Source of the DNA: Convolutriloba macropyga
Taxonomy: Eukaryota
Direction of reading: 5' to 3'
Length of the DNA: 64,000 nucleotides
Assembly: GCF_964194025.1 (NCBI RefSeq)
Contig: NC_134479.1
Coordinates: 25,916,001-25,980,000, forward strand
Shown: positions 14,395 to 64,000 of the stretch, one piece after another
Layout: each line of letters starts with the position of its first letter
Numbering within the stretch: position 1 is the first letter of the stretch
Translations under genes and position numbers: made by a program
The notes under the pieces: model-generated
The model's input: the letters and a program-made list of their open reading frames with translations, nothing else
Told to the model about the DNA's origin: nothing
Databases searched by the model: none

Positions 14395-15160
14395 AATGCC
14401 AACCCTCGACCGGGGCAGTGGCGCAGCAATGGTGCTGGCAATGAATTGGCGGAAGCTGTTGCAGTGGCGCCAGTGGAGGTAATGGTGATGGGGTGGGGAT
14501 GGCAGTGGCTTGGTAGTGGTTTTGATGGTGGCCGTTATGGTAGTGGTGAAGATAATGTCTGTTGTGGAAATAAGGCTGTTGCTTGAAGTGGTGGCCTTGT
14601 TGTGGTGGTGCTGAGTGTGGTGGCTTGAGGGGTAGTCTCGGAGGAGGTCCCGTGTCGAATGTCCTCCCCAAGTTCCTCCGATTTTGTGAAAATGATGTAG
14701 GAGTGGGGCTGTAATGGGAGAACAATTGAGAATTGAGCCCCGTGACCAAAACTCCGATGTAAGAATGAGCTGCAATGAACTGCAATGTGAGAACCTATGA
14801 AAAATCAGCCCCTTAAAAACGCAATAGAAGAGTGCGGGCTGCAATGAGCTGCAATGGGAGGAATTTTGAGGGAATACCCTGAAAAAGTTGCGATGTAAGT
14901 CTAGTTGGCATTAGGCGCAATTTCGAGCAATCAACTCTGATCAACTTTGCGTTGAAAGAGTGGGCGGCAATGGGAGGACTTTTGAGGAATTACCCCCGAC
15001 CTAAGAATTGTTGTTAGAGGAGGGGGGGGGGGGGGGGGGGAGTTAAATTGATATAAGAGTGGTGAGGGGGAGGGGGTTATCTTGTTGAGAGCGGATAAAA
15101 GGGTGTTAGACTGGGACCGCTAAGGTGGTAAAATGATGTAAGAGTGAGCGGGTAACTTGT
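14395..15160. repeat. G-rich low-complexity junction: GGT-rich tract, degenerate ~60-bp minisatellite and poly-G run
   Basis: GGT/GTG-rich 14,450-14,640; recurring GATGTAAGAGTG..GCTGCAATGGGAG..TTTGAG..CCCC motif 14,695-15,000; G run 15,022-15,040. Confidence 0.7.
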
Positions 15161-15209
15161 TGAGCATAGAACTTCAGAAGCATAAAAATTAGAGAAAGGT
15201 CCTTCAGGG

Positions 15210-40949: not shown

Positions 40950-43211
40950 GTGGTAAAGCTTGGATGTCTTGCTCATCATCTGTGTTAAATCTGTCGAGTG
41001 TATTCAGTGACAGTGTTGGAGTTGCGGGCATAGAGTTTCGTCGTTGCTGTCGTTTATTAGTTCCCATTTTTTTCTGCAGAGATGACTGTTGGTGATTTCA
41101 TGAGTTGTTTCGCGAGATTTGAAACTACTTCAGCTTTCACATGTTTCGGTACGGAAACTACTGGATTAAGAGGTAAATTGTTTCCATTAAGCGTCATGAA
41201 GTTTAATGCCATTCGTACAAAAGCTACTTTATGTTATAAATACATGAAGATGATATGTAAGGCTAAGTTTCCGATAAAGACAATGATTGTTAACAAAAGA
41301 GAAAGCTTGATGGGTACGTAAGATTTAAGTTTATCAATTATTGCTGGTTTAAATGACTTCATTTTGGTAGTAATGGGCTTTGCTAATGATAACTTTCTTT
41401 TGATCATAACGTCCAATGATTCCGTTGATAACTTTCGATTGGAATAAATGAATTCTGTGTTAACTTTCTTCAGTAAATTGAGGTTTGCGTCTGTGCTTGT
41501 TTCGTTTTTTGTAGCTCGCTTATGTTTGGCATTGAGTCAATTAAATGATCCAGTGGTGCAAGCAATTTCACATTGATTCTTTTCGCTGGAAGGTACTGAC
41601 AACTTTGTAAATCAGCTCTAATTTTAATATGGTCACTGAACATTGTATGTCCACATTATAATGTGATTCAACAGATCTTACAACCTTTATGAGGCATGTT
41701 GGTTTGTCGGCCATTCTCGTCAATACCAATCTCATTAAGAGGAAAATCACTTGAAGCTGATGTGAGTAGCCAAATTCCGTATCCAAGATTCTGTGCTCGT
41801 TCTGGGATAGGTAACACAACCTTCTCTATGTCACATATATTCAATGCTGTAAGTGCATGATGAAACTTGAGGGTTGCTAGGCACGAGGAGAATCCAAGGT
41901 GGGTTTCCCTTCTCTCGTGACAGATTCGGTATCGTAGCGATCCAAGGCAGTTGTCGTACTGGGATCTCGTCAGTACTGTTGTTTCCATCTGTCCTCCTGA
42001 GATTGCTAGGTATTCTCCTTCAATCACCCATTGTAAGGCATCAACTGAGTCTTTCTGGGGCATAGGGATTACATTTGCACAATAGACTTCAAACACTGTC
42101 TGGCTAGAGGCTAAAAGAATGGCTAGTGTCAGTAAAAGTCCGTCTTCTACTGTCGAAATCTCTTGTACAAGTTTCGCGTTGTTTATAAGAAAGTGTGTCA
42201 GTCATGGGTATTGCCAAAGTTAGACGATCTGGGGCGTTTTTTTGACTATCATGAACTGCATCAAGGATCTTTATCAAAGATTTACGAAGTACTTACGATA
42301 GCATTTATAACAATAATTCGGAAAAATTATAAAGCTGCTCGATAACTTTTAATGTCTGCATAAAGTGTAAGAAGTAATGATGCTGCTGTGTCAAAATTAA
42401 ATTTATTTCGGTGCTGCGTTGCTTGAATTTCCATGCAGGTTGCTAATTCATTTAGATTGTGATCTACGATTGCGAATTGTTCCTCAACTAGTTTCCAGTT
42501 TCTGTTCTGGTTTTCTCGCATTTCGTTTTGAACTTTAAAAACCTTTGTAAGTTCGTCAGCAATTAGAAAGAATTTTTCGTCTGTTTCTGCGCCGTTTTCC
42601 ATGACATAGTCTTTAAGGTTAATAAAACTGTTAGCTAGTCTATCGATGTTTTCAGCATTTTGAGACGTTCGTTGGCACGAGCTGAAAATTCCTGCGATTC
42701 CACTGCATCTTCCGCTGCTCATTGCTATTCCTGGACCGGAGAGTCCAATTCCAGCAACTGCGGCAGCTATAGCAAGCGAGGCGGCTGTCTTTTTTCGATT
42801 TGGGTGTCCTCTTCGACTCTTGTAAGGAAATTTTTGGTCTCGTTCCGCAGTTTGAAGACTTCAATTTCGGCTTCAATTGTTTCATTGAGTATTTTCGTGT
42901 AAAGCCAATCAGCATTGAAAACCTCTCTTTGCTTTTCATAAGTAATACTGTGTGTCATATTGCAGAACTCTGACTTAGTAATTCATTAACTTGAGAGTTC
43001 ATGAATTAGAGTTGGAGTCTACTTGGTGTCGCACAGTAAAGTTATAGCGGGGAAACGGGACTAAAAACTCCGCGTTTATGAACTTCTCAGTGATAAGGAT
43101 CTTTCCTTCCTTGTGGAAGATTATTCCTTGGGCCGGCGTTTCTTCTGTGTTGACTGGAGTCTCAAAATTGGCGCCGAAAAGTACGAGATTTATTACGATG
43201 GTAAGTAACAT
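40950..43211 (-). pseudogene. env: Envelope / class I fusion glycoprotein (errantivirus-env / baculovirus-F-like), disrupted
   Basis: Signal peptide MLLTIVINLVLFGA; GIIFHKEGKILITE; cleavage site RKK(T) at 42,797-42,786 (one base from RKKR) directly followed by fusion peptide AASLAIAAAVAGIGLSGPGIAM; heptad helix (42,327-42,722); Cys-rich domain (41,668-42,096); TM LSLLLTIIVFIGNLALHIIFMYL; cytoplasmic tail. Confidence 0.85.
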
Positions 43212-44412
43212 TTTCGTATTTAAATAATAACAATTATGTTTCAGGACAATCTTCTGATGATGTGGCTCTTCTGGGTGTTCAACTGGTTTCTATTTGGCTT
43301 TCCGGTGTTCATTTGCTCATTTATTTAATGTAATCGGGCCTCTGGTTCTAATTTTCTCAATATGGCACTTATTTATGTGGTATTTATTTGTTTCAGGTGA
43401 ACTCTACTTTCCCACCACATGTATTGATGTGTGTGTGTTTATTAATATTACCACTAAATATGGTGTTTAAACATGCTGAAGTGTAGTTGTTTGGTTAAAT
43501 GGTGGATGTGTGATGATAGTGGTTGCGGGGGTCGAATTATGCAGTTTTTACATGTTTTTTTGAGTTTTTCAGATTATTCTGATATCAATATGTTTTTTAA
43601 TATTACTGTCGGCCCGAATAATATCACTCTGGGATGCTGCAGCAACGGGACCAGGTATGTATCAAGGAGATGGGTTCACTGGTCTCGTCTTATTCATTCA
43701 GAGTGTAATATTAATGCAATATGAAGTACAGTAATAGTTAATAGTATAGAAGATGGAAGAGATGGTTGGGACTGTGACGTAATATTGTTATTAGTATTCA
43801 TATTATTATTCATGCTATTCGGGATTATTGGGATGTGGAGAAGAAGAAGGAGGGGAAGATGTGTGGGAGGAAGGGAGGAGAGTGTGGAGATTGAAGAAGA
43901 GAAGGATGAGGGAGGAGTTGAGATGCAGGAGATGACAGTATAACTAGTTATTTATATTTTTTATTTAACTCATTGACTGACTTTTAGTTATATATACTTA
44001 GTTGTAGTTTGGATTAGTTTGTTTTAATATACTGACTAATACACTTGGTGCTATTAATAAAAAATAAGTTGCCACTAATATCATAGTATTTAGTATATAT
44101 ATCAAACTTGTTTTGTGGGGGGTTGAGGACATAATTAGGGGATAAAATGAGGCGTAATGAATAAGTAAATGTTAGTGAAGGGTGTAATTGTGTGCTCAGA
44201 GTGGTGTTGTGTGTTTTACGGCATGTGTTGTTAACTATTAGCGGTCGTTGTAGCATGGTATTTAAAAGTCCTTGGCATTTATTGCATAATTTGTTCCGCT
44301 TGTGTGTTTTCATTCCTGTGGTTGTTCATTTTTCAAGTGTCACTTTAACTTTTAGCTTGCTTGATAACTAGTTTGACTCAGTTTTTGAAATTTCAGTTAC
44401 CTATTGTTAGTC

Positions 44413-45124
44413 ATGGATGCTGCCCAGTATGAAGATTTTCTGTCTTTCGTGCGAAGAAGATCGTTTCCTCAGTCTGAATGGGTGTATCCAGCATTTGTTC
44501 GGACATTTGAGGACCGAAAAGCTTATCGGGCAAGGGTAGAACACTTGAGACTTGGAACAAAGAATGTGCGGACGTCGAAATTGGTCGTGAATCGCGAAGT
44601 ATTGGTGTAAAAAGTGGAAGTGAAGAAGGGCGATGAGGTACAAGTTCAGGAGAAGGAGATTCCAACTCAGCAGATGGTCGCTCAGGAATTGGCTCCTCTT
44701 CATGTCGGGTTCAGTGCTTCAGCGGTGCACACGACTCGTGTGGGGACGCAAGTCAATCGCTTGAAAGCTGGCGGGTTATTTCCACGTTCGATGGGTGGAT
44801 TGCAGGCCGTCGTTGAAAGGTAAATGCATATGTGTATAATAATTATGTATATTTTTATGTATTTTTCTTTAGTTTTTTGTGTTTATTATTACTTGTGGAG
44901 GGATTTGTGCTTTTTGTTCAGAGCCAATTGTGAATGCGTGCTATTTTTTCGCGAAGAAAATGCGCGGCAAAGAGGTGCATTGCACTTTTTTCTATGCGAA
45001 TCTTCGCGCAAATGTGTGTGCTGTTTTGGGGTATGAGTTCTACAATGACATTTACGCTGAGTATGTCGACGTAGTGTCATTTATAACTCCAAAGTGGCTT
45101 GGTGCGGCTGCTGTTAGGGCCTAA
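44413..45124 (+). pseudogene. Antisense cargo ORF inside the element, apparently spliced; weak resemblance to integrase-type HHCC zinc-binding region
   Basis: TTTCAG acceptor at 44,391-96, ATG 44,413, ~135 codons in one frame with a single stop (44,608), AAG|GTAAAT donor at 44,820, short AT-rich intron-like tract, then Cys-rich sequence; H-x8-H in LHVGFSASAVH. Confidence 0.4.
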
Positions 45125-46439
45125 GTTGGCGGTCTTTGTGCTCTCAGGGATCTTTACTACACGTTATTTGGTCGAAAGTCGGGTATTTATTGTGTTTTTT
45201 CGCAATTTTCATTAGTTTTGGGACTCTAATTCACATTTATTCGATTTATTGCAGTTAAGAAGGTTCCCTAATAATATTATTCGTGCATTGCGCTTGGCTA
45301 TTGTGGCCCGGATGCGTTCGCCTGGGTTCTCGGAGCTTGTGAAAGACCAGTTAGGATAATCTGTGTCTGAGTATGAGATTGCTGAGAGTGAAGACAATGG
45401 ATCATTGGCCGAGTTCTGGGTAAATTATACCTTCAATACGTGGTAATTCTGGTACGAGAATGTGTAGGTAGATGTAATCTGAGGTTTTGTTGTTTAGTTT
45501 GTTGGTATGGCGTATTTCCGTGGATGCAATGTCAATATCTATTGGCAGTATAATGAGGAAATGGCGGTGGGCTGGGTATGCTACAGGCATTCTGTCAAAG
45601 CTAAGGCCACCGCTCCGGCTGTACTGATCCAACAATTCATCAACAATTCATCGACAATGAGTATCGGTACCATTGTGCGCCAATTGTGGACTTTCCGAAG
45701 TGATTATTTAACTGTTTTTGTGCAGAATTAATCGATTTTTAGTGCAATTTTGAGACAATTTATTCACTTTCATGCCCTTTAAACAGGTTGGATGAAGTTG
45801 AGAGGTACGTGACTTGTTCTAGTAAGGCAAGGGGTCATGCCGTTCAGAGTACTAGTGGTGGTGGTACTGTGGCTCAGGATAACGCCGATGAGAATTAACT
45901 AGTGTAGGTGCAATTGTATTCATCATGTAGCTTAGTTTTATTTATAGGTGAGTTTTTACTTATTATTTGTCGATTATAGCCTTGATAATTGGTTTTTACT
46001 GCTGGAAGTAGGAGCTTTGGTGTATGTGAGCATGTGGTAATGTTTTAATTGCGGTGTATAACTATATAATGACATATTTGTGAAAGTGCCAGAATGGTGA
46101 TATAATGACTTTTTTTTTCATTTTTGAGCATTAACTTTGCTTTACTTATGAAATATGGGTCTTAGACTGGTTCTAAGGGCTCTAAACACTTGCGCTAGTT
46201 GTTTGCGGCACTTGCCTTTTTGTGTAATATGAACTGGTTTGAGAGAATCTAATTTTCACATGTAATTTTTTTTCGTAATTTAGGTAATTTTTCTGCATCA
46301 AACTGGTGTTACATATATGTGAATTTTTCAATTTTTATTGAAATTTTAGCAAATTTTTTGGCTTGGCCCACTCGATAGACATTGGGGAACAATTAAGCTT
46401 TAAATTTAGGTTTTAGGACACTTTGCGGTCAATTTTTTT

Positions 46440-48790
46440 ATTCATGTGTGAGAAGTCGAAAAATGCGAAATTTCAGGCAGCCCAGCGTCACGCGATTTTT
46501 AAGTTGCTCCAATCGGGCTCAAAATTGGCAGACTGCTTCAGCGGCTCAAAAAATGCTGCAGCAAAAAAAATTTGGCGAAGTTTGAGCATTTTTCGCAAAG
46601 TTATGATTTTTCGCAAAGTTATGACTATTTTCGTGATCGGAACCTGGCTATTTTTGAATCGTCAAATTTCGGGCTAAATAAGTCATCACTGTTCGTACAT
46701 TATCAATACTGTTAAATGGCACTGTCCCTGCTTGGTACTAATGTATATTACTAAACTATAAGTTTTTAAGCTATTTATTGGGTCAGAACATTGATTTTTG
46801 GATCCAAAATTCTAATTTTCAGGCGTGATTTTTCCACTAATTGAGCTTTTTCAAGACATGTGTCGGTCTAGTGATGCACTAGTGGCCTAAATCGGGCGCT
46901 AAATGTTAGTACTGATATCTGTGGCTATCAGGGGTAGCGTTTTGGTAGCTGTGGAGATGTTTAATTTGTGTTTTGTGCCAGTTTTTCTGTGAAATTTGGT
47001 GGATTTTTTCTTGTGATACGTGATGTTTGGTGCATAAATTGACATAGGTTGGAGATAATAGATTTTTGACGATAATTGAGGGTAACACTAGTGAGTACTA
47101 AGTTGGTGGCAGCTATTGGTGCAGTTTGATGCATGATTTGAGGTCTTTTTTTTTGAGTTTTTTAATTTAGATTTTTTGGCTAAATTTGATCAAATATGTG
47201 CAATTTTTGATTTTTTTTTTATTTTTTTCAACATTTATGAATTTTAGTGCAATTGTATTATTAGGCTTGGGCAACTAGTAGAGAGTCTGAATATTGGATA
47301 TGGGCTCATAAGTCAGCTATTTGATGCTATTTTTCTGGCTCTATTTTGACTAATTTGAGAAGAGTTTGGTAGGCTTCAGTTTTTTGCTATTATTTCAACA
47401 GTTTACTTATCAATTTTCAAAAATTTGATCAAGTTGAGCGTGTAGAGCTTGAGCCTGCGGATGTCTTAAGCTAATAATATTGGGTTTTTGATCACTATAT
47501 CAGATTCTATAAACATGTTCGTGAATTTTCAAAGAGTCTCCAAAAACAGGCAGCCCAGCGTCACGCAATTTTTAAAATGCTTCGATCGCGCTCAAAATTT
47601 AAAGATCGCTTTATCGGCTCAAAAAATCCTGCAGCGCATTGGACGGTTTCAACAATTTTTTCAAGAGCTATGACGTTTTTGCTGCAGTGAACCTGGGTTT
47701 TTTGAGAAGGCTCAGATAGGGGATAGGTTATTGGCTATGAGGTTATGAAAACCTTGTTCAAAAGGGTTGAACAGCTATGGTTGGACTGTTCAAGAGTATG
47801 TCTAACTGAATGAACAATATTATTGGGCATATTCAGGTATTAAGAAGCTTTTTTCATAACTTTTTTTTGGAAATTACACTCAATTTTTTGTGATTTTCGT
47901 TACTTTGGCAGTCTTTTCTCAGCTTGTATTGGCACTAAGGGACTGGGAGTGCATATTCTGAAAGATATGGATTTGAAAGTGCTAATGGTGTAGTTAAATT
48001 TTGTCAGAAATATTTAATTTCATCTCTAGTCGGAAATAACTGAATTTTTTTAGGCAAAATTGTGGCAATTTTAGAGCTTATTTGTGTATAAGTCTTCATG
48101 GTTGGTACTGGGCTGAGCTGGGACTGGTTCTTAAGATACTAAAAGGCTAGTGGGGAGTACACCAGGGTTGTAGAGGGCATATGTGGCATCAATCAGGTCA
48201 GGTGGGAAATAAAATGACAAAATTTTTGAAGCGGTGAATTGAAGCAGAAGCGCAATTTTCGTGTTTTTGTCATTTTTTAACATATACTTGGAAAAAATTG
48301 GTTTTAATGGTTGTTTGACGTTGTACCAAGTGGATGGCAGCTGTGAGTAACTGCTGGAGGCATTTGGGACAGTTTTTGGCATATTTATGGGGTATAATTT
48401 ACACTACAATTTAATCAATTTTAACGAAATTTGGTAGGGTTCGGTATTTTTGCCATAACTCAAGTTTTATAGATTTTTGACGGGCATTTTGGGTACTGGG
48501 ATGTCACTCGTGAGCAGTAATTTTCTAGGTCTATAAAATAGGTCAATTGGGGGTTTTTTGTAGGAGTTATCGTTGAATTCGTGCGGATTCAAAAAGTGTG
48601 AAATTTCAGGCAGCCCAGCGTCACTCAATTTTTAAAATTCTTCAAATAGCTTCAAATTTTGCATATCAATTTTGCGGCTTGAAAAACGCAGCGCAAAAAT
48701 TTGGAGTAATCGGGGCGTTTCTCACAATTTTATGACTGTTTTTCTGAGGTGAACCTAGGATTTTTGGCAAGGTCAATTTTAGGCTAAGTT
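46440..48790. repeat. Three ~200-bp modules with invariant core CAGGCAGCCCAGCGTCAC spaced ~1.07 kb apart
   Basis: Core at 46,474, 47,547 and 48,607 (fourth at 51,198 via duplication); each followed by ..TTTTAA..TCAAA.TT..CGGCT..AAAAA..GCAGC..TATGAC..GAACCT.G. Confidence 0.85.
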
Positions 48791-49027
48791 TTTGTTAATT
48801 GGAACGGGTCAGAAGGAGTCAATTATACCTGAAATCACTTTTACTGAATTAGGGCTTTTCAGAACGAACAAATAGTTCTTGAGATATATTAAAATAACTA
48901 GGTTTTAAGGTCAAAACTTTTCGAATTTTCGACAATTTTTGAAATTAGGGCTAAGTTGCTCAGGCTTGTTGGGCTTTTGGTGCAAATAGAGGGTTTTGCT
49001 AGGCTTGTACTTTGTCTGTTCGTGCGA

Positions 49028-49420
49028 ATGGATATAGATGGTTATGGGTAGGGGGTTAAAATCTAATTTATCATAGTTGCTAAATTATCATAGTTACCAC
49101 TGACGAGTTTCGGGTGTATTAAGTGTGAAATTCCTGCTTCTATTACTATTTTTCTCAGTTCATAAAGACTTGCTAATACAGTTTGTATGTGGGCTTGTAA
49201 TAGTAACTAATTTTGGTAACTAAACTGAAGATATAACGCTCAAAATATTGGTCAAAAGATATTAAAACTGAGCCAATTTTTTGTGGATATCTAAGTTTGG
49301 TTGCGCTTGGGGCTGCTGGGTAACAGCTTTTGACTTGTCGGGCTAATCCCTTTGCCATTGCAAGGTCTGCTGATATACAGCGGGCAAAAGAGTGCGGAGA
49401 GTATAAGATATCTCTTGGTG
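49028..49420 (-). pseudogene. TARG1/OARD1 (Poa1p-like) macrodomain, duplicate copy
   Basis: RDILYSPHSFARCISADLAMAKGLARQVK...RYIFSLVTKISYYYKPTY; small insertion near the GYDKL motif in this copy. Confidence 0.85.
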
Positions 49421-51637
49421 AACTTAGATATGTTGCAATTATTTCTTGACTAAAATGATTTAAATTTTAATTTGTTGACCTTGACAGAGTTTTTTGATTG
49501 AGATCTAGTTACTGGTCTAGTTCCTGTCAGTTAACATAAATTGTTCTTCATGTGTTTCTGGAGGTGATTCTATGTCAAATGGTACTATTGATGGTTGGGA
49601 CTGTTGAGCAGGTAAAAACATTCCGTCACCTGATGAAGATGATACCAGAGGAACACGAATTTCTGTTTCTTGCTGTCTAATTTCATCAGAAATTAACGGA
49701 TGAAACGGTTTTCTAGCTATTTTTTCTGCATCTAGGTTCAAGTGAGAGAGGTTTTTATCTGAATTGATAATTTCTTCAAATAAGTTGGGAATTGCTTCAT
49801 CTGAAATTGAAGAATCAAATACCGGGAGATTTACTGATGCTGTTCGTGGTCTAACTACTGGTGCTACTACCCTTGGTGGGGCCAGTGGTACTGCTGGAGG
49901 TGCTGCTGCTGCTGCTGGTCTTGCTAATGGTCCACATAGGGGAACATTTTTGTTCACTCTGACTGGGTCTTGTTTCACCGTCTTTGATTGTTGTATCTCC
50001 TTTTCTTCTTCGATTATTAATTCCGGAATATGTTTATCAAATAGATCTGGTTCAATATGTTTTCTTCTCGATGGATCAGGGTTGAAAGTTTTCATGGTTA
50101 ATGACTTCAAGGTCTTCAGGAGTTTCACTTGGTTTAATTGGTTTCAATCTGATACGATGTACATATTGTGTTTAATTCGTGTTTACTTTTCGAATGATAT
50201 AATTAGAGTCAGTGAGGACTTCTTCCACTTTATATAGCGGTAGCCATTTCTGAACTTGGGGAGTTATTACAGTTGATTGTTCTAGTAGCTTAGGGTTCAA
50301 AAGTAAACAGAGTGATTTCTCCGAAATAGGTTTAGCTGAGGCTTTTTGGTCATAGTACTTTTTTTATTTCAAGTGTGCAGTCGTCAGTTATTCTTTGTTT
50401 TCTCCAAAGTTTTGCATCATGGCGTCTTGCAGTTCATTTTAAAATCCTAATTTACTGCTACTGCATCCATTACTTGTCTAGAGAATCTAATGTCAAGGGG
50501 TTTTATTGGTTCTTTGCAATGGAATAAAGATGAAGGACAACAATTTGTTGCTGAGTGATAAGAAGTATTACGAATGAGCGTTGCTAGAAGAACATATTTA
50601 TACCAGTCTTTCCATTGTGCTTCAGTATTGAGCTTCAATATTGTTTCAGTGGTCCATGAGATCGCTCTACTGCTCCAATGTTCTGAGGGTGCTTTAGTGA
50701 GGCATGTTTTAACTTTGCTTCTAGTAAATTTGCTAATTCTGACATTAATTCTGAAGTAAATTTGTTCCTAAGTCACTAAGTATTGTTTGAGGAATGTAAC
50801 TGTGATGGAAAAACACTTTTACTAATTCTCGGGCTACTGTGTAAGCATATCCATTCGTTAATGGGACTGCAAATAGATACGTTTTGAAAACATCTAATCC
50901 ACTCAAAAGATACTTAAATTGCGAGGACTTTAGGGGGCCTACTAAATCGATTTGGAGCATATCTCCTTGGTATATTTATGGGGTATAATTTACACTACAA
51001 TTTAATCAATTTTAACGAAATTTGGTAGGGTTCGGTATTTTTGCCATAACTCAAGTTTTATAGATTTTTGACGGGCATTTTGGGTACTGGGATGTCACTC
51101 GTGAGCAGTAATGGTCTAGGTCTATAAAATAGGTCAATTGGGGGTTTTTTGTAGGAGTTATCATTGAATTCGTGCGGATTCAAAAAGTGTGAAATTTCAG
51201 GCAGCCCAGCGTCACTCATTTTTTAAAATTCTCCAAATAGCTTCAAATTTTGCATATCAATTTCGCGGCTTGAAAAACGCAGCGCAAAAATTTGGAGTAA
51301 TCGGGGCGTTTCTCACAATTTTATGACTGTTTTTCTGAGGTGAACCTAGGATTTTTGGCAAGGTCAATTTTAGGCTAAGTTTTTGTTAATTGGAACGGGT
51401 CAGAAGGAGTCAAATATACCTGAAATCACTTTTACTGAATTAGGGCTTTTCAGAACGAAAGATTTTTCCAGGTTCGAACAAATAGTTCTTGAGATATATT
51501 AAAATAACTAGGTTTTAAGGTCAAAACTTTTCGAATTTTCGACAATTTTTGAAATTAGGGCTAAGTTGCTCAGGCTTGTTGGGCTTTTGGTGCAAATAGA
51601 GGGTTTTGCTAGGCTTGTACTTAGTCTGTTCGTGCGA

Positions 51638-52010
51638 ATGGATATAGATGGTTATGGGTAGGGGGTTAAAATCTAATTTATCATAGCCACTGACGAGTTT
51701 CGGGAGTATTAAGTGTGAAATTCCTGCTTCTATTACTATTTTTCTCAGTTCATAAAGACTTGCTAATACAGTTTGTATGTGGGCTTGTAATAGTAACTAA
51801 TTTTGGTAACTAAACTGAAGATATAACGCTCAAAATATTGGTCAAAAGATATTAAAACTGAGTCAATTTTTTGTGGATATCTAAGTTTGGTTGCGCTTGG
51901 GACTGCTGGGTAACAGCTTTTGACTTGTCGGGCTAATCCCTTTGCCATTGCAAGGTCTGCTGATATACAGCGGGCAAAAGAGTGCGGAGAGTATAAGATA
52001 TCTCTTGGTG
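51638..52010 (-). pseudogene. TARG1/OARD1 (Poa1p-like) macrodomain downstream of integrase
   Basis: SFARCISADLAMAKGLA ~ TARG1 SLAHCISEDCRMGAGIA; RYIFSLVTK..YYKPTY ~ RYIYYLITK..SHKPTY; after a frameshift AGISHLILPKLVSGYDKLDF ~ [20 protein letters not shown]; terminal ITIYIH strand. Confidence 0.88.
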
Positions 52011-52106
52011 AACTTAGATATGTTGCAATTATTTCTTGACTAAAATGATTTAAATTTTAATTTGTTGACCTTGACCGAGTTTTTTGATTGAGATCTAGTT
52101 ACTGGT

Positions 52107-55100
52107 CTAGTTCCTGTCAGTTAACATAAATTGTTCTTCATGTGTTTCTGGAGGTGATTCTTTGTCAAATGGTACTATTGATGGTTGGGACTGTTGAGCA
52201 GGTAAAAACATTCCGTCACCTGATGAAGATGATACCAGAGGAACACGAATTTCTGTTTCTTGCTGTCTAATTTCATCAGAAATTAACGGATGAAACGGTT
52301 TTCTAGCTATTTTTTCTGCATCTAGGTTCAAGTGAGAGAGGTTTTCATCTGAATTGATAATTTCTTCAAATAAGTTGGGAATTGCTTCATCTGAAATTGA
52401 AGAATCAAATACCGGGAGATTTACTGATGCTGTTCGTGGTCTAACTACTGGTGTTACTACCCTTGGTGGGGCCAGTGGTACTGCTGGAGGTGCTGCTGCT
52501 GCTGCTGGTCTTGCTAATGGTCCACATAGGGGAACATTTTTGGTCACTCTGACTGGGTCTTGTTTCACCGTCTTTGATTCTTGTATCTCCTTTTCTTCTT
52601 CGATTATTAATTCCGGAATATGTTTATCAAATAGATCTGGTTCAATATGTTTTCTTCTCGATGGATCAGGGTTGAAAGTTTTCATGGTTAATGACTTCAA
52701 GGTCTTCAGGAGTTTCACTTGGTTTAATTGGTTTCAATCTGATACGATGTACATATTGTGTTTAATTCGTGTTTACTTTTCGAATGATCTAATTAGAGTC
52801 AGTGAGGACTTCTTCCACTTTATATAGCGGTAGCCATTTCTGAACTTGGGGAGTTATTACAGTTGATTGTTCTAGTAGCTTAGGGTTCAAAAGTAAACAG
52901 AGTGATTTCTCCGAAATAGGTTTTGCTGAGGCTTTTTGGTCATAGTACTTTTTTTATTTCAAGTGTGCAGTCGTCAGTTATTCTTTGTTTTCTCCAAACT
53001 TTTGCATCATGGCGTCTTGCAGTTCATTTTAAAATCCTAATTTACTGCTACTGCATCCATTACTTGTCTAGAGAATCTAATGTCAAGGGGTTTTATTGGT
53101 TCTTTGCAATGGAATAAAGATGAAGGCCAACAATTTGTTGCTGAGTGATAAGAAGTATTACGAATGAGCGTTGCTAGAAGAACATATTTATACCAGTTTT
53201 TCCATTGTGCTTCAGTATTGAGCTTCAATATTGTTTCAGTGGTCCATGAGATCGCTCTACTGCTCCAATGTTCTGAGGGTGCTTTAGTGAGGCATGTTTT
53301 AACTTTGCTTCTAGTAAATTTGCTAATTCTGACATTAATTCTGAAGTAAATTTGTTCCTAAGTCACTAAGTATTGTTTGAGGAATGTAACTGTGATGGAA
53401 AAACACTTTTACTAATTCTCGGGCTACTGTGTAAGCATATCCATTCGTTAATGGGACTGCAAATAGATACGTTTTGAAAACATCTAATCCACTCAAAACA
53501 TACTTAAATTGCGAGGACTTTAGGGGGCCTACTAAATCGATTTGGAGCATATCTCCTTGGTATGATTGTAGTGAACTGACTGGTTGCAACTTAGGTGTGA
53601 TGCTGTTTTTTGGAACTCTGTTTAATTGGAGACAAGTGAGGCAATTTTTGATGAAAATAATGAAATGTTCGGTGAAACCTGGGTATTAGAATCGCTTTAT
53701 AATTTCCTGAATTGTTGCTTTGATGCCTAAATGACTTGCTGTTTGTGAATTATGGAGCCAATATATAGTCTTTTTCCACAAATTTCTAGGTACGCAGAAT
53801 TATTTATGAAGTACTTTTCCGGTATTATAATAAAAATTCCTGTATAAACATTCCCTTCAAGAATTAATCTATTTAAATTTTGTGATACTTTTTTAAGTTT
53901 GTTGAAGCATAATTTAAGTCTGGTTGTTGATTATTTTGTTGAATCCAGCTTATTATTGTTCTAATTTGTGCATCTTTTTGCTGTTCTTCTGCTAAGTTGA
54001 GGCTAATTAAGTTGTCTGTAATGTCTGGGAACTCATCTAATGGATTTGGGTACTGAATTGAGTTTATTTCTTGCTTTCTTTTAAGTTTAAATAGCCCATG
54101 AAATTCTGTAATGGGAAAATTAGTTTTTTGTTGAAGCCGAGTTTTTTAAGTACATCAAGTTCGTCACTATTATTTTCATCACTAAAGTTTTCAAAATGAT
54201 GTAATACATTCAGTTCAAAATCAGGATTTTGTGCTTCTGTATCAATTTCTATTTCTCTAACAGGAATTCTATCTGTTAGTTTTAAAGACATTGTTGCTGT
54301 TTTGTCATTCTCCATTCGGGAGAGAAAATCTGCGGCATAATTAGCGCGTCCTGGAATGTGAGCAATTACTATGTTAAAGGCAAGTATTCTGTCTATACAA
54401 TTCCAAAGTGATGGCGGTATTACTTTTGACTGAAAGATTTGTGTACGCCTTTCGTTGTCAGTAAATATAATTACTTGTTTGCTTCATCCCCAAATATAGT
54501 GCGAAAAGTAGTCCAGCGCGTAGTACAAAGCTAAGAACTCTTTGAGAATTAACTCTCTGAATAAATTGAGAACTTTAATTTCGTTGCATTAAACAAATGC
54601 GATCCAAACGATACGGGAGCGTATGTTTTCTTTTCTTTCTTTACTGTTTTGTTTACTTAAGTTGCTCAAAGAGGTGATTTTATCCTGATGATTACATTTT
54701 GGGTCTAATCTTTCCATTTCTTGCAGTTTTAACAGTTGCTCATATATTTCTCTATGCAAGGGCGACAAGTTTGACGGATCTGGGCATGTTTCAGGCGTTA
54801 GAAACCACAATTTTTCATATTTTGAAGCCGGCTTTGCTGGTTGAGCTCTTCTTTTTGGCGTATCTGTGACTTGGATTTGTTGATTTATTTCTGTTAGGTA
54901 ATTTTTAGTCATTTTTTGCAACATTTATTAATTGACGATCTATTTCTAAGAACTGTTTAGCTTGGCCTGATGTTAAAAATGAAAATTTGGCTATTTCTTT
55001 GCCTTTATTTATGGTAACTTGGTGTTCAGTAATGTTCAGGACATAGATGTAAAGGATATTATTTTCAGCAATTTTACTTAAAGAGGACGTTAATATTACT

Positions 55101-55690
55101 TCGCTATCTTTTTCAAAGATTTCATTTGGAGTTATTACGCCGCAAAGTCAGTAAATAATTCTAGTTTGTCGTGAAGCTTGCATTCTATTAGTGCTTGTTG
55201 GTTTGGCTGTAAAACTTGTTTTTTTCTCTGTATAAACTCCAAATTTTTTACGTTTTACTACTCTTCTGGGTTGCTTTTCTGGCTTTAATTCATTTATTTG
55301 CAGAATTTGCTCAGGGAATTTAATGTAGCTTTGTCCTGGGCAGATACTAACTTTATGTTTAATGAAGAATGGGTTGCCTAATATTGCCGGAGTTGTGACA
55401 ATTAATACAAGGAAGTCTTCAGTGAATGTGTGTGTTCCCAATTTAAATGTAACTTTAATTGCTTTATCAATTTTAACTATATTACCGTTTGCCATTTTAA
55501 CTTTATCTAGATCTGGCTTTTCAGTTTCTGTTATTGAGTTGATATTTGTGTTATTAAGCTCCTTGTAAAACTCACGACTTATCACGATGGCAAATGTTCC
55601 TGTATCAATTAGTGCGCGTCTATCTAATTCTCCATTAAAATTAATTTTAACATAGGATAATGTTCTGCCTAAAAGTGGGACAATACTAAA
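52107..55690 (-). pseudogene. pol: pol remnant: aspartic protease, RNase H, integrase, Pro/Ala-rich linker; RT domain deleted
   Basis: RALIDTG (~55,618-55,598); KEFLALYYALDYFSHYIWG..IFTDN..HIPGRANYAADFLSR (54,545-54,320); LHNSQTASHLGIKAT..CLTC; LQIDLVGP..GLDVFKTYLFAVP..ILSDLGTN..ERSHGPLK; no RT motifs between the protease region and RNase H (junction ~54,655). Confidence 0.9.
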
Positions 55691-55699
55691 TAGTTGCTA

Positions 55700-57161
55700 A
55701 ACATGTGGTACTGGCTTTGGTGCAGGTTGGGGCACTTGTGTTGGGAGTTGCACCGGTTTACTGACTTTACTTTTATTATTATTATTTTTGCGTTTTCTAC
55801 GCTTTTTGTTACTTTTACTAAAAACTGGTTCTATTACATTATCTAAACTAGGACTGGACGTGCTTTCGTTATAATAATTAACTGAGTTCTTATGCTTTTT
55901 ATTTTGTTGAGTGGTTTTATTACTTTTTTTGTTGACTAAATGGATAATTCATACCTCTCATATTTCTATTCTGACGTGCACCTGCTCGACAAAATTCTTT
56001 TGCTTTTTGCACACCGTATCGGTCTTGTGCTGGGCTATTCCCTGTCGAAGAAAATTTGCAGGTGTATTTTTTATTCGAAACGATAAACTGGTCTATTAAT
56101 ATAAGCTTGGTGAACAAATGGAGGGCTATCTGAAGGTTCTGTCCAATTTTTCCGAGTTTGTGGCTGTTCATTATGATAAAATGGTCTAGGGGCATTAAAT
56201 TGTGGTCTAAATTCTCGGTAACTATTAACACGACGGGAATACTGCAGATGGGGCCGATAGTGTTGCTGAAATTGACGACAATTGGGCTGATATTGGTAAT
56301 AATTTGGTCGATAATTTTGATATTGGGGGCGGAAATTTTGTCTATAACTTTGTTTGTAGACTTGTTGTGGGTACTGTGTTGTGAAGATGTTTACTGGGCC
56401 TTGTTCTAGTGGTTCATTTTTAAATGTTGTTCTCTTATCAAGTTTTTGTTCAAGTTCTTTTTGGTTATTTGAAATGACTGTTATTGCTTTTAACATTTTA
56501 TCAGTGTTTTCTTTCTGTTATTTCATTAAAACCGTCGTCAAAATACTATTCTCTATTACACATCTCCCTTATTGCAATTTGTTGGCTCGCTAAGGTACAT
56601 AACTGATCAATTGTATCAGTATTTGGCCTTTCTAACAGCTTAGGTTTAAGCCAGTTTGGCATAGACTTAATAAAGAAACGCTTTTTTTGTTCGTTTTTTC
56701 GATTTTCTGATGTTTCAAGGGCAGCATCTCTTGCAGCTCTCTCTCTTTCAAATCTGCGAGCCTATGGGTCACCTGCTCCTGCTGGCGCTACTACTAATTC
56801 GGGTATTGGGTATGATTTATTTGCTTCTGTTCTCAACTTTACTAAGAAGTTTTTTACTGTATCTGTTTTTGGGTAAAATTTTGATTCTCTAACTTTATTA
56901 TTCTGATTTCTCTCAAGAAGTCTTGCGTGAATCTATTTGTTAGAGCTGTCATCTTGTCTTCAACAGCTAGTCTGGTAGCCTCTGGTAAGGTTAAGAAGTA
57001 TCGTAAAGCATCTCCTTTTAAATGAAACTGCAAAAATTCTTTTGTTGCGCGCCTGCGACTGATACGACTCCGATTGCACCTGTTATTAAGTAATCGAACT
57101 CGCTAAAATTATCCGTTTCTGATCCAGAAAAGGGTGTGGTGTTGATTTGCGCGTGTGTCAT
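55700..57161 (-). pseudogene. gag: gag remnant of nested element
   Basis: ATG at 57,161: MTHAQINTTPFSGSETDNFSEF...FLQFHLKGDALRYFLNLPEATR (Gypsy capsid-like); Q/N/Y/P-rich segment 56,071-56,496; decayed Zn knuckle ~56,060. Confidence 0.8.
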
Positions 57162-58388: not shown

Positions 58389-58401
58389 ACTCCTGTCACC
58401 A
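58389..58401 (-). promoter_or_regulatory. Primer binding site, tRNA-Leu-like
   Basis: Minus strand TGGTGACAGGAGT immediately after the LTR; 12/13 match to the complement of the eukaryotic tRNA-Leu(CAG) 3' end (TGGTGTCAGGAGT, from recall). Confidence 0.7.
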
Positions 58402-59241
58402 TGTTAAGCCATGACTTTTAGAAGATGTTTTCATGGTGTTATTGAGACAAATTATAGAAATAACGGGGCAGATTTACTGTCATTTTTCAAGGACTTATTT
58501 TGATGTTTCACAGTGCATTTTTTAGCGGATAAATTTTTAAATAAAGTTAGCTAGAAACAGCCTTTTAATGAGCGGTTCGGATGCGCAATATATTCACTAG
58601 TTGCCTTGGTTTTTAGAGCTTTGTTAGTACTAATTTCAACTCTAATGAAGTCGGCTCAAACTTTGAGTTTTCGAAAGAATTTCCAGTTCAATCTTTTAAT
58701 ACTATGCAAAAAGAACAAAAGTAAAGTTTCAATGATAGAAAGAAGGTTTTCTGAGTTTATTATCAACTGATCTCTGTGTAGGTTCTCCGGTGTTCTGGTC
58801 CCTGTGGGTTCCGTAGGACTGTGCCTCGAGTTGTATTGGTCCTCCGCAAATGTTTACTAATCTACAAGTTTTGTACGTCTCTTGATGTTTGTTAAGTACA
58901 TATACAAGTTCCGTATTAGCACCTGCTTTATCAGAATAATTACAGAACCAAGTACATAATCTCTCGAGAAGTTTTTTACTAATTATCCGAATTTATCTTC
59001 AAGTAACTCAAAAAAGTAAAAAGTGAGGCTTTTAGGTCTTTGATATGTTTATCAGTAAACTGTCAATCTACGGTTATTTTTCATAAACATATACAAATAG
59101 GGGGTTACAGGCTTATATGGGAACACTAGCTATATATGGCCCTGAGATCTATTTGAATTTGAACTAAATTAAAGCACTTATTTATGGATATTTAAAGGAA
59201 TATCATCACGTAACTATGAGGAATGAAATAGGGGCGTGACC
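58402..59241 (-). repeat. 5' LTR of nested minus-strand element (840 bp)
   Basis: TGTTAAG..ACTTTTAGAAGATGTTT ... AATAGGGGCGTGACC; collinear with 39,737-40,352. Confidence 0.92.
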
Positions 59242-59312
59242 TATTGTTACTATTACTATCAACAAGAAAAGTTGCAAATTTCACAAATCTTCCTTTGTCG
59301 CAACAAGGGGTA

Positions 59313-59686
59313 TGTGATACCCGTGGATCTCCTGCATTTCATTTATTTTTTTGGTGCAGTAAAATTTCATATGATGTATTTATTTAGCTCAATTTGTTTG
59401 CCCTTCTTTAACCTTTCACGTTTGATCATTCTATGTCTCGAGTTGTTCTATTGCATCCTTTCCTGGTTTCTCGCTTCGTGATAAGAAATATCTGAGCACA
59501 CATTTCTTAGTTGCTTACAAGCACTTGAATTTATAGAATCATTTTCGTAATTCAATTTCAGTTGTCTTTTCTTGGTAAACTCGCTCGACAAGTCAAGGTA
59601 ACGTAATTAAGCTTGGATTTCGTTCAACAATTCATAAAATCTTAAATTGTTTGTTAACTCGCACTGCAAGTGATCACCGAATTTCA
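59313..59686 (+). repeat. LTR 2 of + strand family (3' LTR of first element, shared as 5' LTR of next unit)
   Basis: PPT-like CAACAAGGGGTA before, TGTGATACCCG start, ATTTCA end, PBS-like TAGTGTACAAC after. Confidence 0.88.
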
Positions 59687-62600
59687 CTAGTGTACAACAA
59701 AGATGCGGAGACAAGCACAGGGAAGATATGCAAAAGTAAAGCAGATTTGTTGACATATCTCAATCTGGGAATCGAGGGTTGGAAAATTTTTTGTTCTCAT
59801 GATATGATATAAAAGATTCGATGAAAACAAAGGAGCTGTGAACCATTCTTGACACTTTTTTGACACAAAAAGACATCAAAGAAAGACCATTTAAAGAGTT
59901 AAAAGATCTCTACGAGAATTGTCCCATAATTGTGACGTAGGAAGATTTCATTAGCCGCGATTTTTTTGGCTGGCATATTTGATAGGGAACTTCGATGCGA
60001 GCGAACTTCTAGAACACTATTGAAACAAAGCGGGCTCTTAAAATAGCAAAAATGAGGTTGGAATACAAAACGCACTGCAGTTATCGGGAACGTCACAATA
60101 TACAAGATTAAAGATATACACCCGAACCACCCAGGTACTTGGGGAATGATCTGTATGGCCACGCTTTGCTGGTGGCCCTAGATGAATCGAGAACTCGTTG
60201 CCAAAGCGACAGAGTACAAACCTTGCACTACAATTGGTAAGAATCTAAAATGTGTAATTCCTGCTAAGCAAATTCGACCTCATATACCATGTGTTGAACC
60301 GAATCAAGAAATGCAAATTGATTTTGTAGAACCTAGTTTTGACGAAAAAGGCAATGAAGTCTATTTCTTAGCTTCTATAGACTATTTCTCTAAATATCCT
60401 ACGGCAAGTATAATTGAAAAAGCTAATGGACCAAAAGTTTTGAAATTTTTGACAATGTCCATCAAAATTCGTGCAATCCTCGCTCTAATCGACTTGACCA
60501 ATCAAAATGTTTAGATGGAAATCAGGTAAAGACCTTTTGTAGTAGAAATGATATTGAAATCACTGAAGTTCCGGTTAATGATCATTGTGCTATTGGTGAA
60601 GTAGAAAGATTATTTCAAACGATTAAGAATGGACTGGCATGTATCAAAGATGAGAAATCGATAGATAACGCATTTCAAGTAAAGCATGCAGTAAGGATTA
60701 TCATTCAACAATTGCGAATTTGCAAACAGAAACCAACAATGATCTCGCCATTCAATGCGCACTTTGGCCGTAATCCTAACACCACTGTTGAGCATAATCT
60801 CCACTTAACCTAAACTGTCTTGTTTCTCATATGAGAGTATTGTAAATCACTATTTAGATGAACACAGAGTCACACCCGAGGCCATTCCCCCCCGACGATA
60901 AATGGCTGCATGGATATCGCAGCGATATTGAAGTGCAACTCGGAAGGACTCGGGCAGCGTGTGAGGCCAATGAACGAGAACAGGCGAGTGCGGATGGCGA
61001 AACACGCTTTATTCGTTCAGGCGCTTGCCGGCCAATTCCGATTACGGAGAGAGCAAAGAAACTCAAACTGGCCCTCAAAATACACGGAAAACGTAGATCT
61101 AAGAAGAATGTGGTGGACCTGTATGAGAATTGCTTGGCTCCCGGTTCAAACACCTTGAAGGTCAGCCCAACAACCTCCACTGTAAATAGCCCAGGAGACC
61201 TATAGTAACGGTACACAATAGCGACATTGCCATATTTGGTACAATTCAGGAGCGACAATCCCCTTTAAGAGTCTATGCGGATCGACGGGGGCGAAGATCA
61301 TGCCAAAACTTGTGGAAGAGCAGATTCAAAGCCACATAAAGCAAATCACCAGAAAACTTAAGGGTGATAAGAAAATGAAGCATCGCAAGCCAGAGCCTGG
61401 CAGTGGGGTTTAGTCTTCTCGTGAAAATATTTTACGCGCGATGCAAGGGCATATCCCTAAAATTCCTGATTTTCTCGCCAACCGCAACCGAAAAATTAAA
61501 ATTCAGACCAATTTGGCACACGAGTTGGCTTTACCCATGCAATCGGCCATGCAATCGACAATGCAGGGCAGCAAACGTACTTCGGACAGAAACCGCGGTA
61601 GCCCATCATACTACGGTTTTGACAACTCATTTTCAGAATCGACCATTGCAGCTTCACCCAAACGTTCACGCCGAGCGGGAGACGTAGAGAAGGTCCAGCC
61701 CACACCTGCATCAGTTGTCGAAACAGTACATAACATTGCCGTTCAACAGCCTGAAGAAATCAACAATTCTCCGATTATCGGAGAAGTTTCGCCACCTGCT
61801 CCGCGAGTGCAACCAATTATTGATGAGGACATCCCGACATTGGTGAGATTGATGACAGTTCTTGAAGCCGAAAACCAAGAGATTTCTGAATTGTTAATTT
61901 CGCAACCAAAACTGCGTAAACTGTAAAATTTTAGTTTAATACTATTCCATTTTTAGCTATGATAACCAGCACATATATTGTTATTATTTATATAACCGGG
62001 GACCAAGTATAAGTTTGTAAATATTGTTACTATTACTATCAACAAGAAAAATTGCTAATTTCACAATTCTTCTTTTGTGGCAACAAGGGGTATGTGATAC
62101 CCGTGGATGTTCTGCATTTCATTTATTTTTTTGGTGCAGTAAAATTTCATATGATGTATTTATTTAGCTCAAATTGTTTGCTCTTCATTAACCTTTCACG
62201 TTTGATCATTCTTTGTCTCGAGTTGTTCTATTGCATCCTTTCTTGGTTTCCCGCTTCGTGATCAGACATATCTGAGCACACAGTTCTTAGTTGCTTACAA
62301 GCACTTGAGTTTATGGATTCATTTTCGTAATTCAATTTCAGTTGTCTCTTTCTATTGGTAAACTCGCTCAACAAGTAAACGTAACGTAATTAAGCTAAAC
62401 CTAAACTGTCTTGTTTCTCATATGAGAATATTGTAAATCACTATTTAGATGAACACACAGTCACACCCGAGGCCAATCCCCCAGACGATAAATGGCTGCA
62501 TGGATATCGCAGCGATATTGAAGTGCAACTCGGAAGGACTCGGGCAGCGTTTGAGGCCAATGAACGAGAACAGCCGAGCGCGGATGGCGAATCACGCTTT

Positions 62601-63790
62601 ATTCGTTCAGGCGCTTTCCGGCCAATTCCGATTACGGAGAGAGCAAAGAAACTCAAACTGGCCCGCAAAATACACGGAAAACGTAGAAGGAGATGTTTCG
62701 CCACCTGCTCCGCGAGTGCAACCAATTATTGATGAGGACATCCCGACATTGGTGAGATTGATGACAGTTCTTGAAGCCGAAAATCAAGACATTTCTGAAT
62801 TGTTAATTTCGCAACCAAAACTGCGTAAACTGTAAAATTTTAGTTTAATACTATTCCATTTTTAGCTATGATAACCAGCACATATATTGTTATTATTTAT
62901 TTAACCGGGGACCAAGTATAAGTTTGTAAATATTGTTAATATTACTATCAACAAGAAAAATTGCTAATTTCACAATTCTTCTTTTGTCGCAACAAGGGGT
63001 ATGTGATACCCGTGGATGTTCTGCATTTCATGTATTTTTTTGGTGCAGTAAAATTTCATATGATGTATTTATTTAGCTCAAATTGTTTGCTCTTCATTAA
63101 CCTTTCACGTTTGATCATTCTTTGTCTCGAGTTGTTCTATTGCATCCTTTCTTGGTTTCTCGCTTCGTGATCAGACATATCTGAGCACACAGTTCTTAGT
63201 TGCTTACAAGCACTTGAGTTTATGGATTCATTTTCGTAATTCAATTTCAGTTGTCTCTTTCTATTGGTAAACTCGCTCGACAAGTAAACGTAACGTAATT
63301 AAGCTTGGATTTCGTTCCACAATTCTTAAATTCTAAAATTGTTTGTTAACTCGCACTGCAAGTGATCACCGAATTTCAATAGCGTACGACAAATATGTGG
63401 AGACAAGCACATGGAAGAAGTGCAATAGTAAAGCAGATTTGCTGACATATCTCAATCTGGGAATCGAGGGTTGGAAAATTTTTTGTTCTCAAGATATGAT
63501 GTACAAGATAGATAAAAACAAAGGAGCTTTGAACCATTCTTGACACTTTTTTGACACAAAAAGACATCAAAGAACGACCCTTTAAAGAATTAAATGATCT
63601 CTACGAGAATTGTCCCACAATTGTGGCGAAGGAAGATTTCTTTGGCCGCGATATTTTTTGGCTGGCATATTTGATAGGGAGCTTCGATGCGAAGGTCTAG
63701 AAAACTATTGAAACAAAGCGGGCTCTTGAAATAGCAAAAATGAGACTGGAATACGAAACGCACTGCTGTTTTCGGGAACGTCACAAAATA
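59687..63790 (+). mobile_element. Tandem array of internally deleted derivatives of the + strand Gypsy family
   Basis: gag fragment 59,700-60,110 fused to integrase-3'UTR 60,128-62,090 (homologous to 37,830-39,730); truncated LTR 62,093-62,396; 909-bp mini-unit; LTR 63,002-63,378; second gag fragment 63,379-63,790. Confidence 0.88.
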
Positions 63791-64000
63791 CACCGATTAA
63801 TTGACTAACGTAGAATAGAAAAAAAAACTTTAGCTCATTCGAAAGGTTACCTCTCTCCCAAATTTCATCATAATAGAGATCACAAGAAACAAAGACCATT
63901 GTTCTAATTGTGATAACAACCGTCACTAACATAAATGTCTAGCATATGGTAAACACTGCAAAATGAAAAAAGGCAACCAAAAAAGGGAAGAAGTTAACTA

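Follow-up and report, generated by a model that had tools for sequence, protein, structure and literature searches.

The closest described relatives of the elements reported herein are the "ancient errantiviruses" of Chary and Hayashi (PMC13524379), which, according to the accessible portions of that paper, have in common with ours a Ty3/gypsy gag-pol-env organization, an F-type env with a furin site and a fusion peptide, young multi-copy insertions, an env that diverges along with pol, and an env sequence that is not insect-like. The property by which that paper recognizes an ancient errantivirus, a multi-copy gag-pol-env element with an env of the F or gB type, is also what we found. The present elements deviate in their pol-env gap, which measures ~2.5-6 kb and holds an antisense cassette, whereas the filters described in the accessible text of PMC13524379 provided for a POL-ENV distance of 1000 nt or for extensions of 3000-5000 nt; the words "antisense," "OTU," and "accessory" do not occur in that text. 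The same paper favors an ancient acquisition of env, with limited resolution at depth.

Several other systems, again as described in the accessible parts of the cited papers, share single aspects of these elements. In bdelloid rotifers, the TelKA and Vesta/Juno elements (PMC5408684) are likewise invertebrate LTR elements with a paramyxovirus-like F env, and they draw exchangeable enzyme ORFs from a pool common to elements; there, however, ORF3 (GDSL, DEDDy) replaces env, whereas here env coexists with a JmjC- or OTU-like cargo that lies antisense and contains introns. Plant Retand elements (Tat; PMC11963269) resemble ours in a 2.9-6.6 kb region after pol with antisense ORFs and repeats, and in recently active copies, but they are without env, their cargo is TRP28 rather than JmjC or OTU, and that text reports no small membrane ORF; the antisense genes of Retand and of deltaretroviruses are thought to regulate the element (PMC11963269). 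The Ginger1 transposase (PMC2836005) has a YPYY motif, an H2C2 zinc finger, a C-terminal OTU domain, and GT-AG introns, as does the gene described below, which differs in encoding a 381-aa product without a DDE core and in its location inside an LTR element. Mobile elements with mark-modifying domains include fungal transposons bearing TET/JBP dioxygenases (PMC12730594), although these are DNA transposons and the accessible part of that paper gave no retrotransposon with TET, and planarian Burro (PMC6431247), whose ubiquitin-related or mark-modifying accessory domains lie in a sense polyprotein or an upstream ORF. Judged against these sources, antisense ORFs after pol, exchangeable enzyme ORFs, accessory domains, and F-type env elements are already known, and what is new is an env-bearing element with an exchangeable antisense cassette. 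A literature search, whose coverage stopped short of subscription journals and Repbase Reports and took in part of the element table of PMC13524379, found no element that combines env with an antisense cassette of the JmjC or OTU type.

The locus analyzed here lies in a window of 64,000 nucleotides (the whole stretch of DNA analyzed) from Convolutriloba macropyga. We consider it highly probable that it is explained as a dead env copy of a Ty3/gypsy element that combines an F-type env with an exchangeable antisense cassette. The features of the window element, which spans 59240 to 39737, are as follows.

39732..39736, no strand: target-site duplication, with its partner at 59241-59245 and four of five letters in agreement (flank comparison)
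39737..40352, minus strand: 3' LTR with internal deletions, 92.9% identical to the 5' LTR over 603 aligned bases
40930..43211, minus strand: F-type env pseudogene, 764 codons in open paralogues, here with 11 indels and 7 premature stops (translation, paralogue comparison, fold of an open paralogue)
41235..41320, minus strand: transmembrane segment, limits approximate (translation, paralogue comparison, hydropathy)
42714..42785, minus strand: Ala/Gly-rich fusion-peptide-like segment, paralogue residues 144-167 (translation, alignment, hydropathy)
42786..42797, minus strand: decayed basic cleavage motif R-K-K-T, R-Q-K-R in open paralogues (translation, paralogue comparison)
43590..43900, plus strand: small membrane-protein ORF (C..CC.NG..W..C, then a transmembrane segment and a basic run), head-to-head with env, end approximate (family comparison, hydropathy)
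44410..45898, plus strand: five-exon antisense gene with a YPYY-like motif, an H2C2-type zinc finger, and an OTU-like domain, frame broken in the window (paralogue comparison)
~44410-44819, 44922-45182, 45255-45419, 45498-45699, and 45787-45898, plus strand: exons of the antisense OTU-like gene, all four GT-AG pairs kept in the window
46448..48770, no strand: three dispersed repeats of ~170 bp, spaced ~1.07 kb from one another where the pol-env interval is non-coding (repeat search)
49520..55900, minus strand: pol (protease, RT, RNase H, integrase), broken (paralogue comparison, Pfam order in an open paralogue)
55880..57160, minus strand: gag, broken, limits approximate and projected from paralogues (paralogue comparison)
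58402..59240, minus strand: 5' LTR, followed by a TGG-starting primer-binding-like site (paralogue and LTR comparison)

By its sequence organization, the element is an env-bearing Ty3/gypsy LTR retroelement of 18.7 kb, ordered LTR-gag-pol-interval-env-LTR. Six paralogous loci were read with their surroundings, and full-length elements of 17.3-18.7 kb were found in four, all of them with 865-bp TG..CA LTRs and 5-bp target duplications, and with LTR pairs 98.6-99.8% alike. In young copies, a gag frame of 424-426 aa overlaps a pol frame of up to 1937 aa; an interval of 4.4-5.8 kb then separates pol from env, which is followed by the 3' LTR. Pfam domains in an open paralogue follow the Ty3/gypsy order (protease, RT, RNase H, H2C2, integrase core), and a PDB sequence search with the 221-aa pol bridge region returned no match. 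The window copy is nested in another Ty3/gypsy element, whose flanks are contiguous on 61790-62260 with a 5-base overlap; it lacks ~1.1 kb of pol at 54659 and carries a tandem duplication of ~2.6 kb in the pol region (about 48380-53560). Because its closest DNA relative is 87% identical and its LTR pair has diverged to the extent listed above, it represents an older insertion. The primer-binding-like site (~58390-58401, minus strand) agrees at only 7 bases with the tRNA-Trp end tabulated in the accessible part of PMC13524379.

The pol-env interval contains no long sense ORF, and short antisense ORFs are present. In a young copy (L028, predicted junctions 1029/1141, 1400/1474, 1637/1716, and 1915/2001), splicing predicted by eye joins five exons across T-rich GT-AG introns of 111, 73, 78, and 85 bases into an open 381-aa frame. 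Of the 30 best among 150 matches, 26 retain every one of the four GT-AG pairs, as does the window, and 21 have an open frame of the 381-aa type. On shared variants, pN/pS of the gene is 0.10, as against 2.65 and 3.49 in shifted frames, and dN/dS of the exons relative to four older copies and the window is 0.19-0.57. The predicted product has a YPYY-like motif and two invariant His with a CxxC, split by intron 1; with the CxxC at 142 and the OTU-like Cys at 206, there is no room for a DDE domain. Compared with seven Pfam-defined OTU domains from the same genome, its C-terminal region reached an hhalign probability of 77% (E 2e-5, 132 columns), while 30 shuffles gave at most 1.3%, and exon pieces matched the OTU profile at E 7e-4 and 6e-4. 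The OTU-like Cys is present in all six sequences and the His in four of five exon-4 sequences, one being without it; an Asp ahead of the Cys in the OTU alignment is absent from the cargo. Single OTU-like exons had no match in Pfam, PDB profile searches with the cargo found no OTU, and an HMM built from three OTU domains missed the cargo, so the assignment of the focal cargo as an OTU-like domain is likely, not certain. An Atlas search with exon 1 yielded nothing but matches below 0.9, a protein-database search for the spliced product yielded a single unnamed 203-aa fragment, and automatic gene models were obtained for two of five distant OTU-type families. Four sequencing runs from one study covered the young copy in all bins, and none of the four predicted junctions was among the 15 joints listed; these reads look like genomic DNA and do not bear on splicing. 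Reading the gene as a Ginger1 transposon was rejected: it has no DDE core, and a search of the window for inverted repeats of at least 40 bases found none.

Between this gene and env lies the small membrane ORF, which in the window copy meets a stop after 44 codons. It was found in 15 of 16 sister families (truncated in one; not found in L096), upstream of the cargo and opposite in direction to env, with its start 139-382 bases from the env ATG. Among copies otherwise ~97% alike, two strongly different versions of the ORF were seen (L058, L065, and L068 versus L084, 4204-4450; 43590 in the window), a pattern that suggests that this ORF alone is exchanged or fast-changing.

Beyond the focal family, an antisense cargo sits between pol and env in all 16 sister-family copies, which were hand-picked from 117 match rows in favor of long open frames; 11 of these cargoes are JmjC-like and 5 OTU-like. 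The JmjC-like cargo falls into two subtypes, with ten sequences aligned and the broken copy L102 assigned by its 46% match. As a profile, it matches PHF8 (best, 5e-7), KDM7, PHF2, and KDM2A, and its model has a cupin fold, with PHF2/KDM7 as the top fold matches, TYW5 and JMJD6 lower, and FIH also among the matches. Of the metal ligands H-x-D/E...H, the first His is kept in nine and the last in all ten aligned sequences; Pfam matches were obtained for four of the ten, all below the cut-off. Relative to five diverged copies ~80% identical, dN/dS is 0.05-0.07, with two near-identical pairs being uninformative and two distant pairs saturated. Three copies that are 94-95% alike in pol and the start of env have no alignable DNA across the cassette. 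With cargo labels fixed before tree building, the env tree requires five or more changes of cargo type, and monophyly was rejected both for the OTU-bearing families (p-AU 1.5e-4) and for the short-JmjC-bearing families (7e-39). At the level of alignments and trees, these comparisons show a cargo gene that is conserved as a protein and repeatedly exchanged between families, in either JmjC-like or zinc-finger/OTU-like form. An env lies within the 1.5-kb flank for 25 of the best 28 JmjC-like matches. At both distant loci checked (L183, 1235-2578, minus strand; L184, 5254-6201, plus strand), neither env nor pol occurs in the 7 kb around the multi-copy JmjC-like ORFs, so the cargo pool extends beyond env-bearing elements.

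In the mechanism we propose, Env would be cut by a furin-like protease and its trimer would refold, fusing the particle membrane with that of a target cell, as known F proteins do, and such fusion would move the element between cells, probably from soma to germ line. The antisense orientation would let the cassette introns survive reverse transcription, because the genomic RNA would carry them backwards and hence unspliced, while antisense RNA may be spliced to alternative acceptors, giving the small membrane protein and the cargo. At the weakest step, the cargo enzymes would remove host silencing marks (methyl-lysine or ubiquitin) as a counter-defense. We tentatively name such removal as the most likely role of the cargo, although an enzymatic or regulatory role of some other kind is no less probable. 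Indeed, a functional cassette whose cargo instead targets RNA or proteins of the element or the host (through hydroxylation or ubiquitin-like processing), or regulates the element, has close to an even chance of being correct: the fold matches of the JmjC-like cargo include the non-histone hydroxylases TYW5, JMJD6, and FIH, no PHD or other reader domain turned up in the cargo, and antisense regulatory ORFs are discussed in the accessible text of PMC11963269. Set against this, histone demethylases of the PHF8/KDM7/KDM2 group rank highest by both sequence and fold, one slot alternates between two unrelated mark-removing enzyme classes, and transposon-borne TET/JBP dioxygenases are interpreted as counter-silencing in the part of PMC12730594 accessible to us. 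A broader extension of the counter-defense reading is speculative and, in our view, somewhat doubtful: a radiation of invertebrate retrovirus-like elements may possess an accessory slot like that of complex retroviruses, in which an antisense spliced cassette pairing a small membrane glycoprotein with a silencing-mark eraser (a JmjC demethylase-like protein or an OTU deubiquitinase) is swapped in an arms race with the host.

The env family itself is large. A 156-aa env piece searched against its own genome matched in all 150 scored candidates (of 1007 first-look candidates), so that the gene is no product of chance, and by our count 23 of the 150 lie in stop-free frames of at least 764 aa, which supplies the intact paralogues that the first-pass annotation had proposed to look for. 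In an open paralogue, hydropathy peaks at residues 4-22 (weak, 1.52), 144-167 (right behind the basic motif), and 633-665, a type I membrane layout of signal, transmembrane anchor, and tail that is kept in the alignment. Hydrophobic residues fill 75% of the a/d positions of helix 102-130, compared with 29% elsewhere, and 92% of those of helix 267-310, compared with 42% elsewhere. An AlphaFold2 monomer model of an open paralogue (27 sequences, pLDDT 69, pTM 0.55) gave 162 Foldseek matches in the PDB at E<=0.001 (best 1.5e-6), all of those listed being paramyxovirus or pneumovirus F; its best BFVD matches (3e-21 to 2e-17) were to chu-like virus glycoproteins, an abalone herpesvirus protein, and baculovirus F, with the TM-scores of this monomer low throughout, at 0.2-0.4. 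The best Atlas match was a Fusion_gly cluster (0.93; family label on 33% of members). At the sequence level, the focal paralogue scored 16.7 bits for Pfam Baculo_F (PF12259) against a cut-off of 24.1, which was passed by one of ten env proteins (27 bits) in one set and by none of twelve in another; searching the PDB with the env profile brought up only haemagglutinin HA2 and henipavirus F, all weakly (E 0.017 or worse), and a profile search recovered 1144 cluster representatives at E<=1e-10, without names. The first-pass annotation had likened the layout to baculovirus F and paramyxovirus-like F proteins, which these fold matches bear out, and it had treated cellular best matches, or intact copies without a basic site, as grounds for giving the reading up; neither applies, since the listed PDB matches are all viral F proteins, the motif reads R-Q-K-R in 15 of 16 paralogues (a stop in one; 19 were fetched, 3 of which were unread by pattern), and R-x-x-R followed by an Ala/Gly-rich hydrophobic peptide occurs in all 16 sister-family envs, which are 47-58% identical to the focal one. 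The model and the layout support a class I F-type fusogen, a type I membrane protein with R-x-x-R and a hydrophobic peptide. A possible sense-strand acceptor for env, a pyrimidine-rich AG within 300 bases, occurs in 9 of the 16 sister families at scattered positions.

Over variants common to at least 2 of 16 copies, which include changes private to the reference copy, env has a pN/pS of 0.06, compared with 2.4 in a shifted frame, and env and pol give matching trees for 17 families (the plus-strand neighbor element being too distant and partial to serve as a root for the pol tree). These patterns of substitution and branching show that purifying selection preserved env during the multiplication of the family and that env and pol were inherited together. 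Since the two trees mirror each other, env was acquired once, before the 17 families split, in line with the ancient-acquisition view in the accessible text of PMC13524379. The first-pass annotation had further suggested that this env may be a capture separate from that of insect errantiviruses; the trees cover these 17 families. The pN/pS of env and the young LTR pairs indirectly favor the proposal of the first-pass annotation that the ancestral element could form infectious particles. It is unlikely that Env now acts without such particles, having been retained for fusing cells, for receptor interference, or for some other role inside the cell: the adjoining small membrane ORF is somewhat like FAST/sORF2 proteins as described in the accessible part of PMC11952523 (transmembrane segment, basic run), but signal, cleavage motif, fusion peptide, heptads, transmembrane segment, and tail are conserved together with gag-pol in 17 families, and these features are under selection in multiplying copies.

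It is far less probable that the antisense genes are remnants of DNA transposons (Ginger1-like or Helitron-borne) that hitch-hike between pol and env without benefit. The YPYY-like motif, H2C2, and OTU with GT-AG introns do reproduce the Ginger1 layout described in the accessible text of PMC2836005, minus its DDE core, and JmjC-like ORFs also occur away from env and pol at both distant loci noted above, so that a DNA-transposon origin of the antisense genes may well be correct. Their neutrality, however, is largely refuted by the sequence comparisons, given purifying selection within and between families, the retention of splice sites, the recurrence in different families of one cargo position and orientation, behind the same small membrane ORF, and a 381-aa product without a DDE core.

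Turning from the family back to the window copy, six-frame translation places its env-like gene on the minus strand, from an ATG at 43211 to a stop at 40930, with a hydrophobic N-terminus, a basic motif, an Ala/Gly-rich hydrophobic run, long helices, a Cys-rich region, a transmembrane segment, and a tail, in that order. The first-pass annotation had described a complete class I architecture; all parts are indeed present in order, but they are complete only in the paralogues, as the window copy, at 82% DNA identity to one open 764-aa paralogue, carries the listed indels and in-register stops, the first stops near codons 76-77 (~42988), and its frame breaks near 42800, immediately ahead of the basic motif. 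On this evidence, it is a pseudogene, a dead older copy of a real F-type env gene. The same annotation had derived R-K-K-T from R-K-K-R by one change, which does not hold, because open paralogues read R-Q-K-R and the window differs at more than one motif position; among the nearest DNA copies (14 fetched, 10 read), six have R-Q-K-R, one has Q-Q-K-R, and three are frame-broken within the motif. The window copy itself has no R-x-x-R site and no basic P1 residue. Because the copy was already dead upstream of the site, the changed site is, as far as these alignments go, ordinary decay, one lesion among many and without special meaning. That it instead marks a specific inactivation or domestication step is scarcely credible, for the basic P1 residue is indeed missing, but stops and frame breaks precede the motif (unless these are errors of the assembly), breaks also affect gag, pol, and the two antisense genes, and the LTRs are 7% diverged.

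A tandem satellite array of ~50 copies of a 263-269-base unit fills window positions 1-14300, an assembly gap of 200 N lies at 32461-32660, and broken Ty3/gypsy elements with RNase H and integrase Pfam matches, in which no env was seen, occupy 33281-39736 and 59241-64000 (plus strand), one of them hosting the nested env-bearing element. Short ORFs at 15100-17400 (plus strand) resemble what we take to be BEL/Pao gag and RNase H pieces. Elsewhere in the genome, OTU domains occur inside single open frames of ~2500 aa (C4:51247693, C2:35746210, C10:43501294, and others, L124-L130), which probably represent another class of large mobile element. Segments of the cassette or of env are arrayed in tandem at C2:27097976-27109881, C11:25440912-25459595, C11:44712547-44723984, and C9:16392713-16399544. 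The cox1 contig follows the invertebrate mitochondrial code (TGA=Trp, AGA=Ser, AAA=Lys, ATA=Met), which, provided that this contig belongs to the host, speaks against cnidarians, ctenophores, tunicates, echinoderms, and flatworms. Adjoining one env copy is a 435-aa ORF with a P-loop-like motif (L021, ~2970-4270, plus strand), reminiscent of a Polinton-type ATPase.

Taken by itself, the env adds one more host for a known and widespread class. The cassette, if the reading proposed here is true, would turn "simple" invertebrate elements into complex ones and would show intron-containing genes riding backwards in a retroelement. It would further offer a natural series of replacements, one slot being filled by either of two unrelated enzyme classes, and retroelement-encoded counter-silencing would become testable with purified domains. 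Finally, our results suggest that surveys filtering for a short pol-env distance undercount env-bearing elements.
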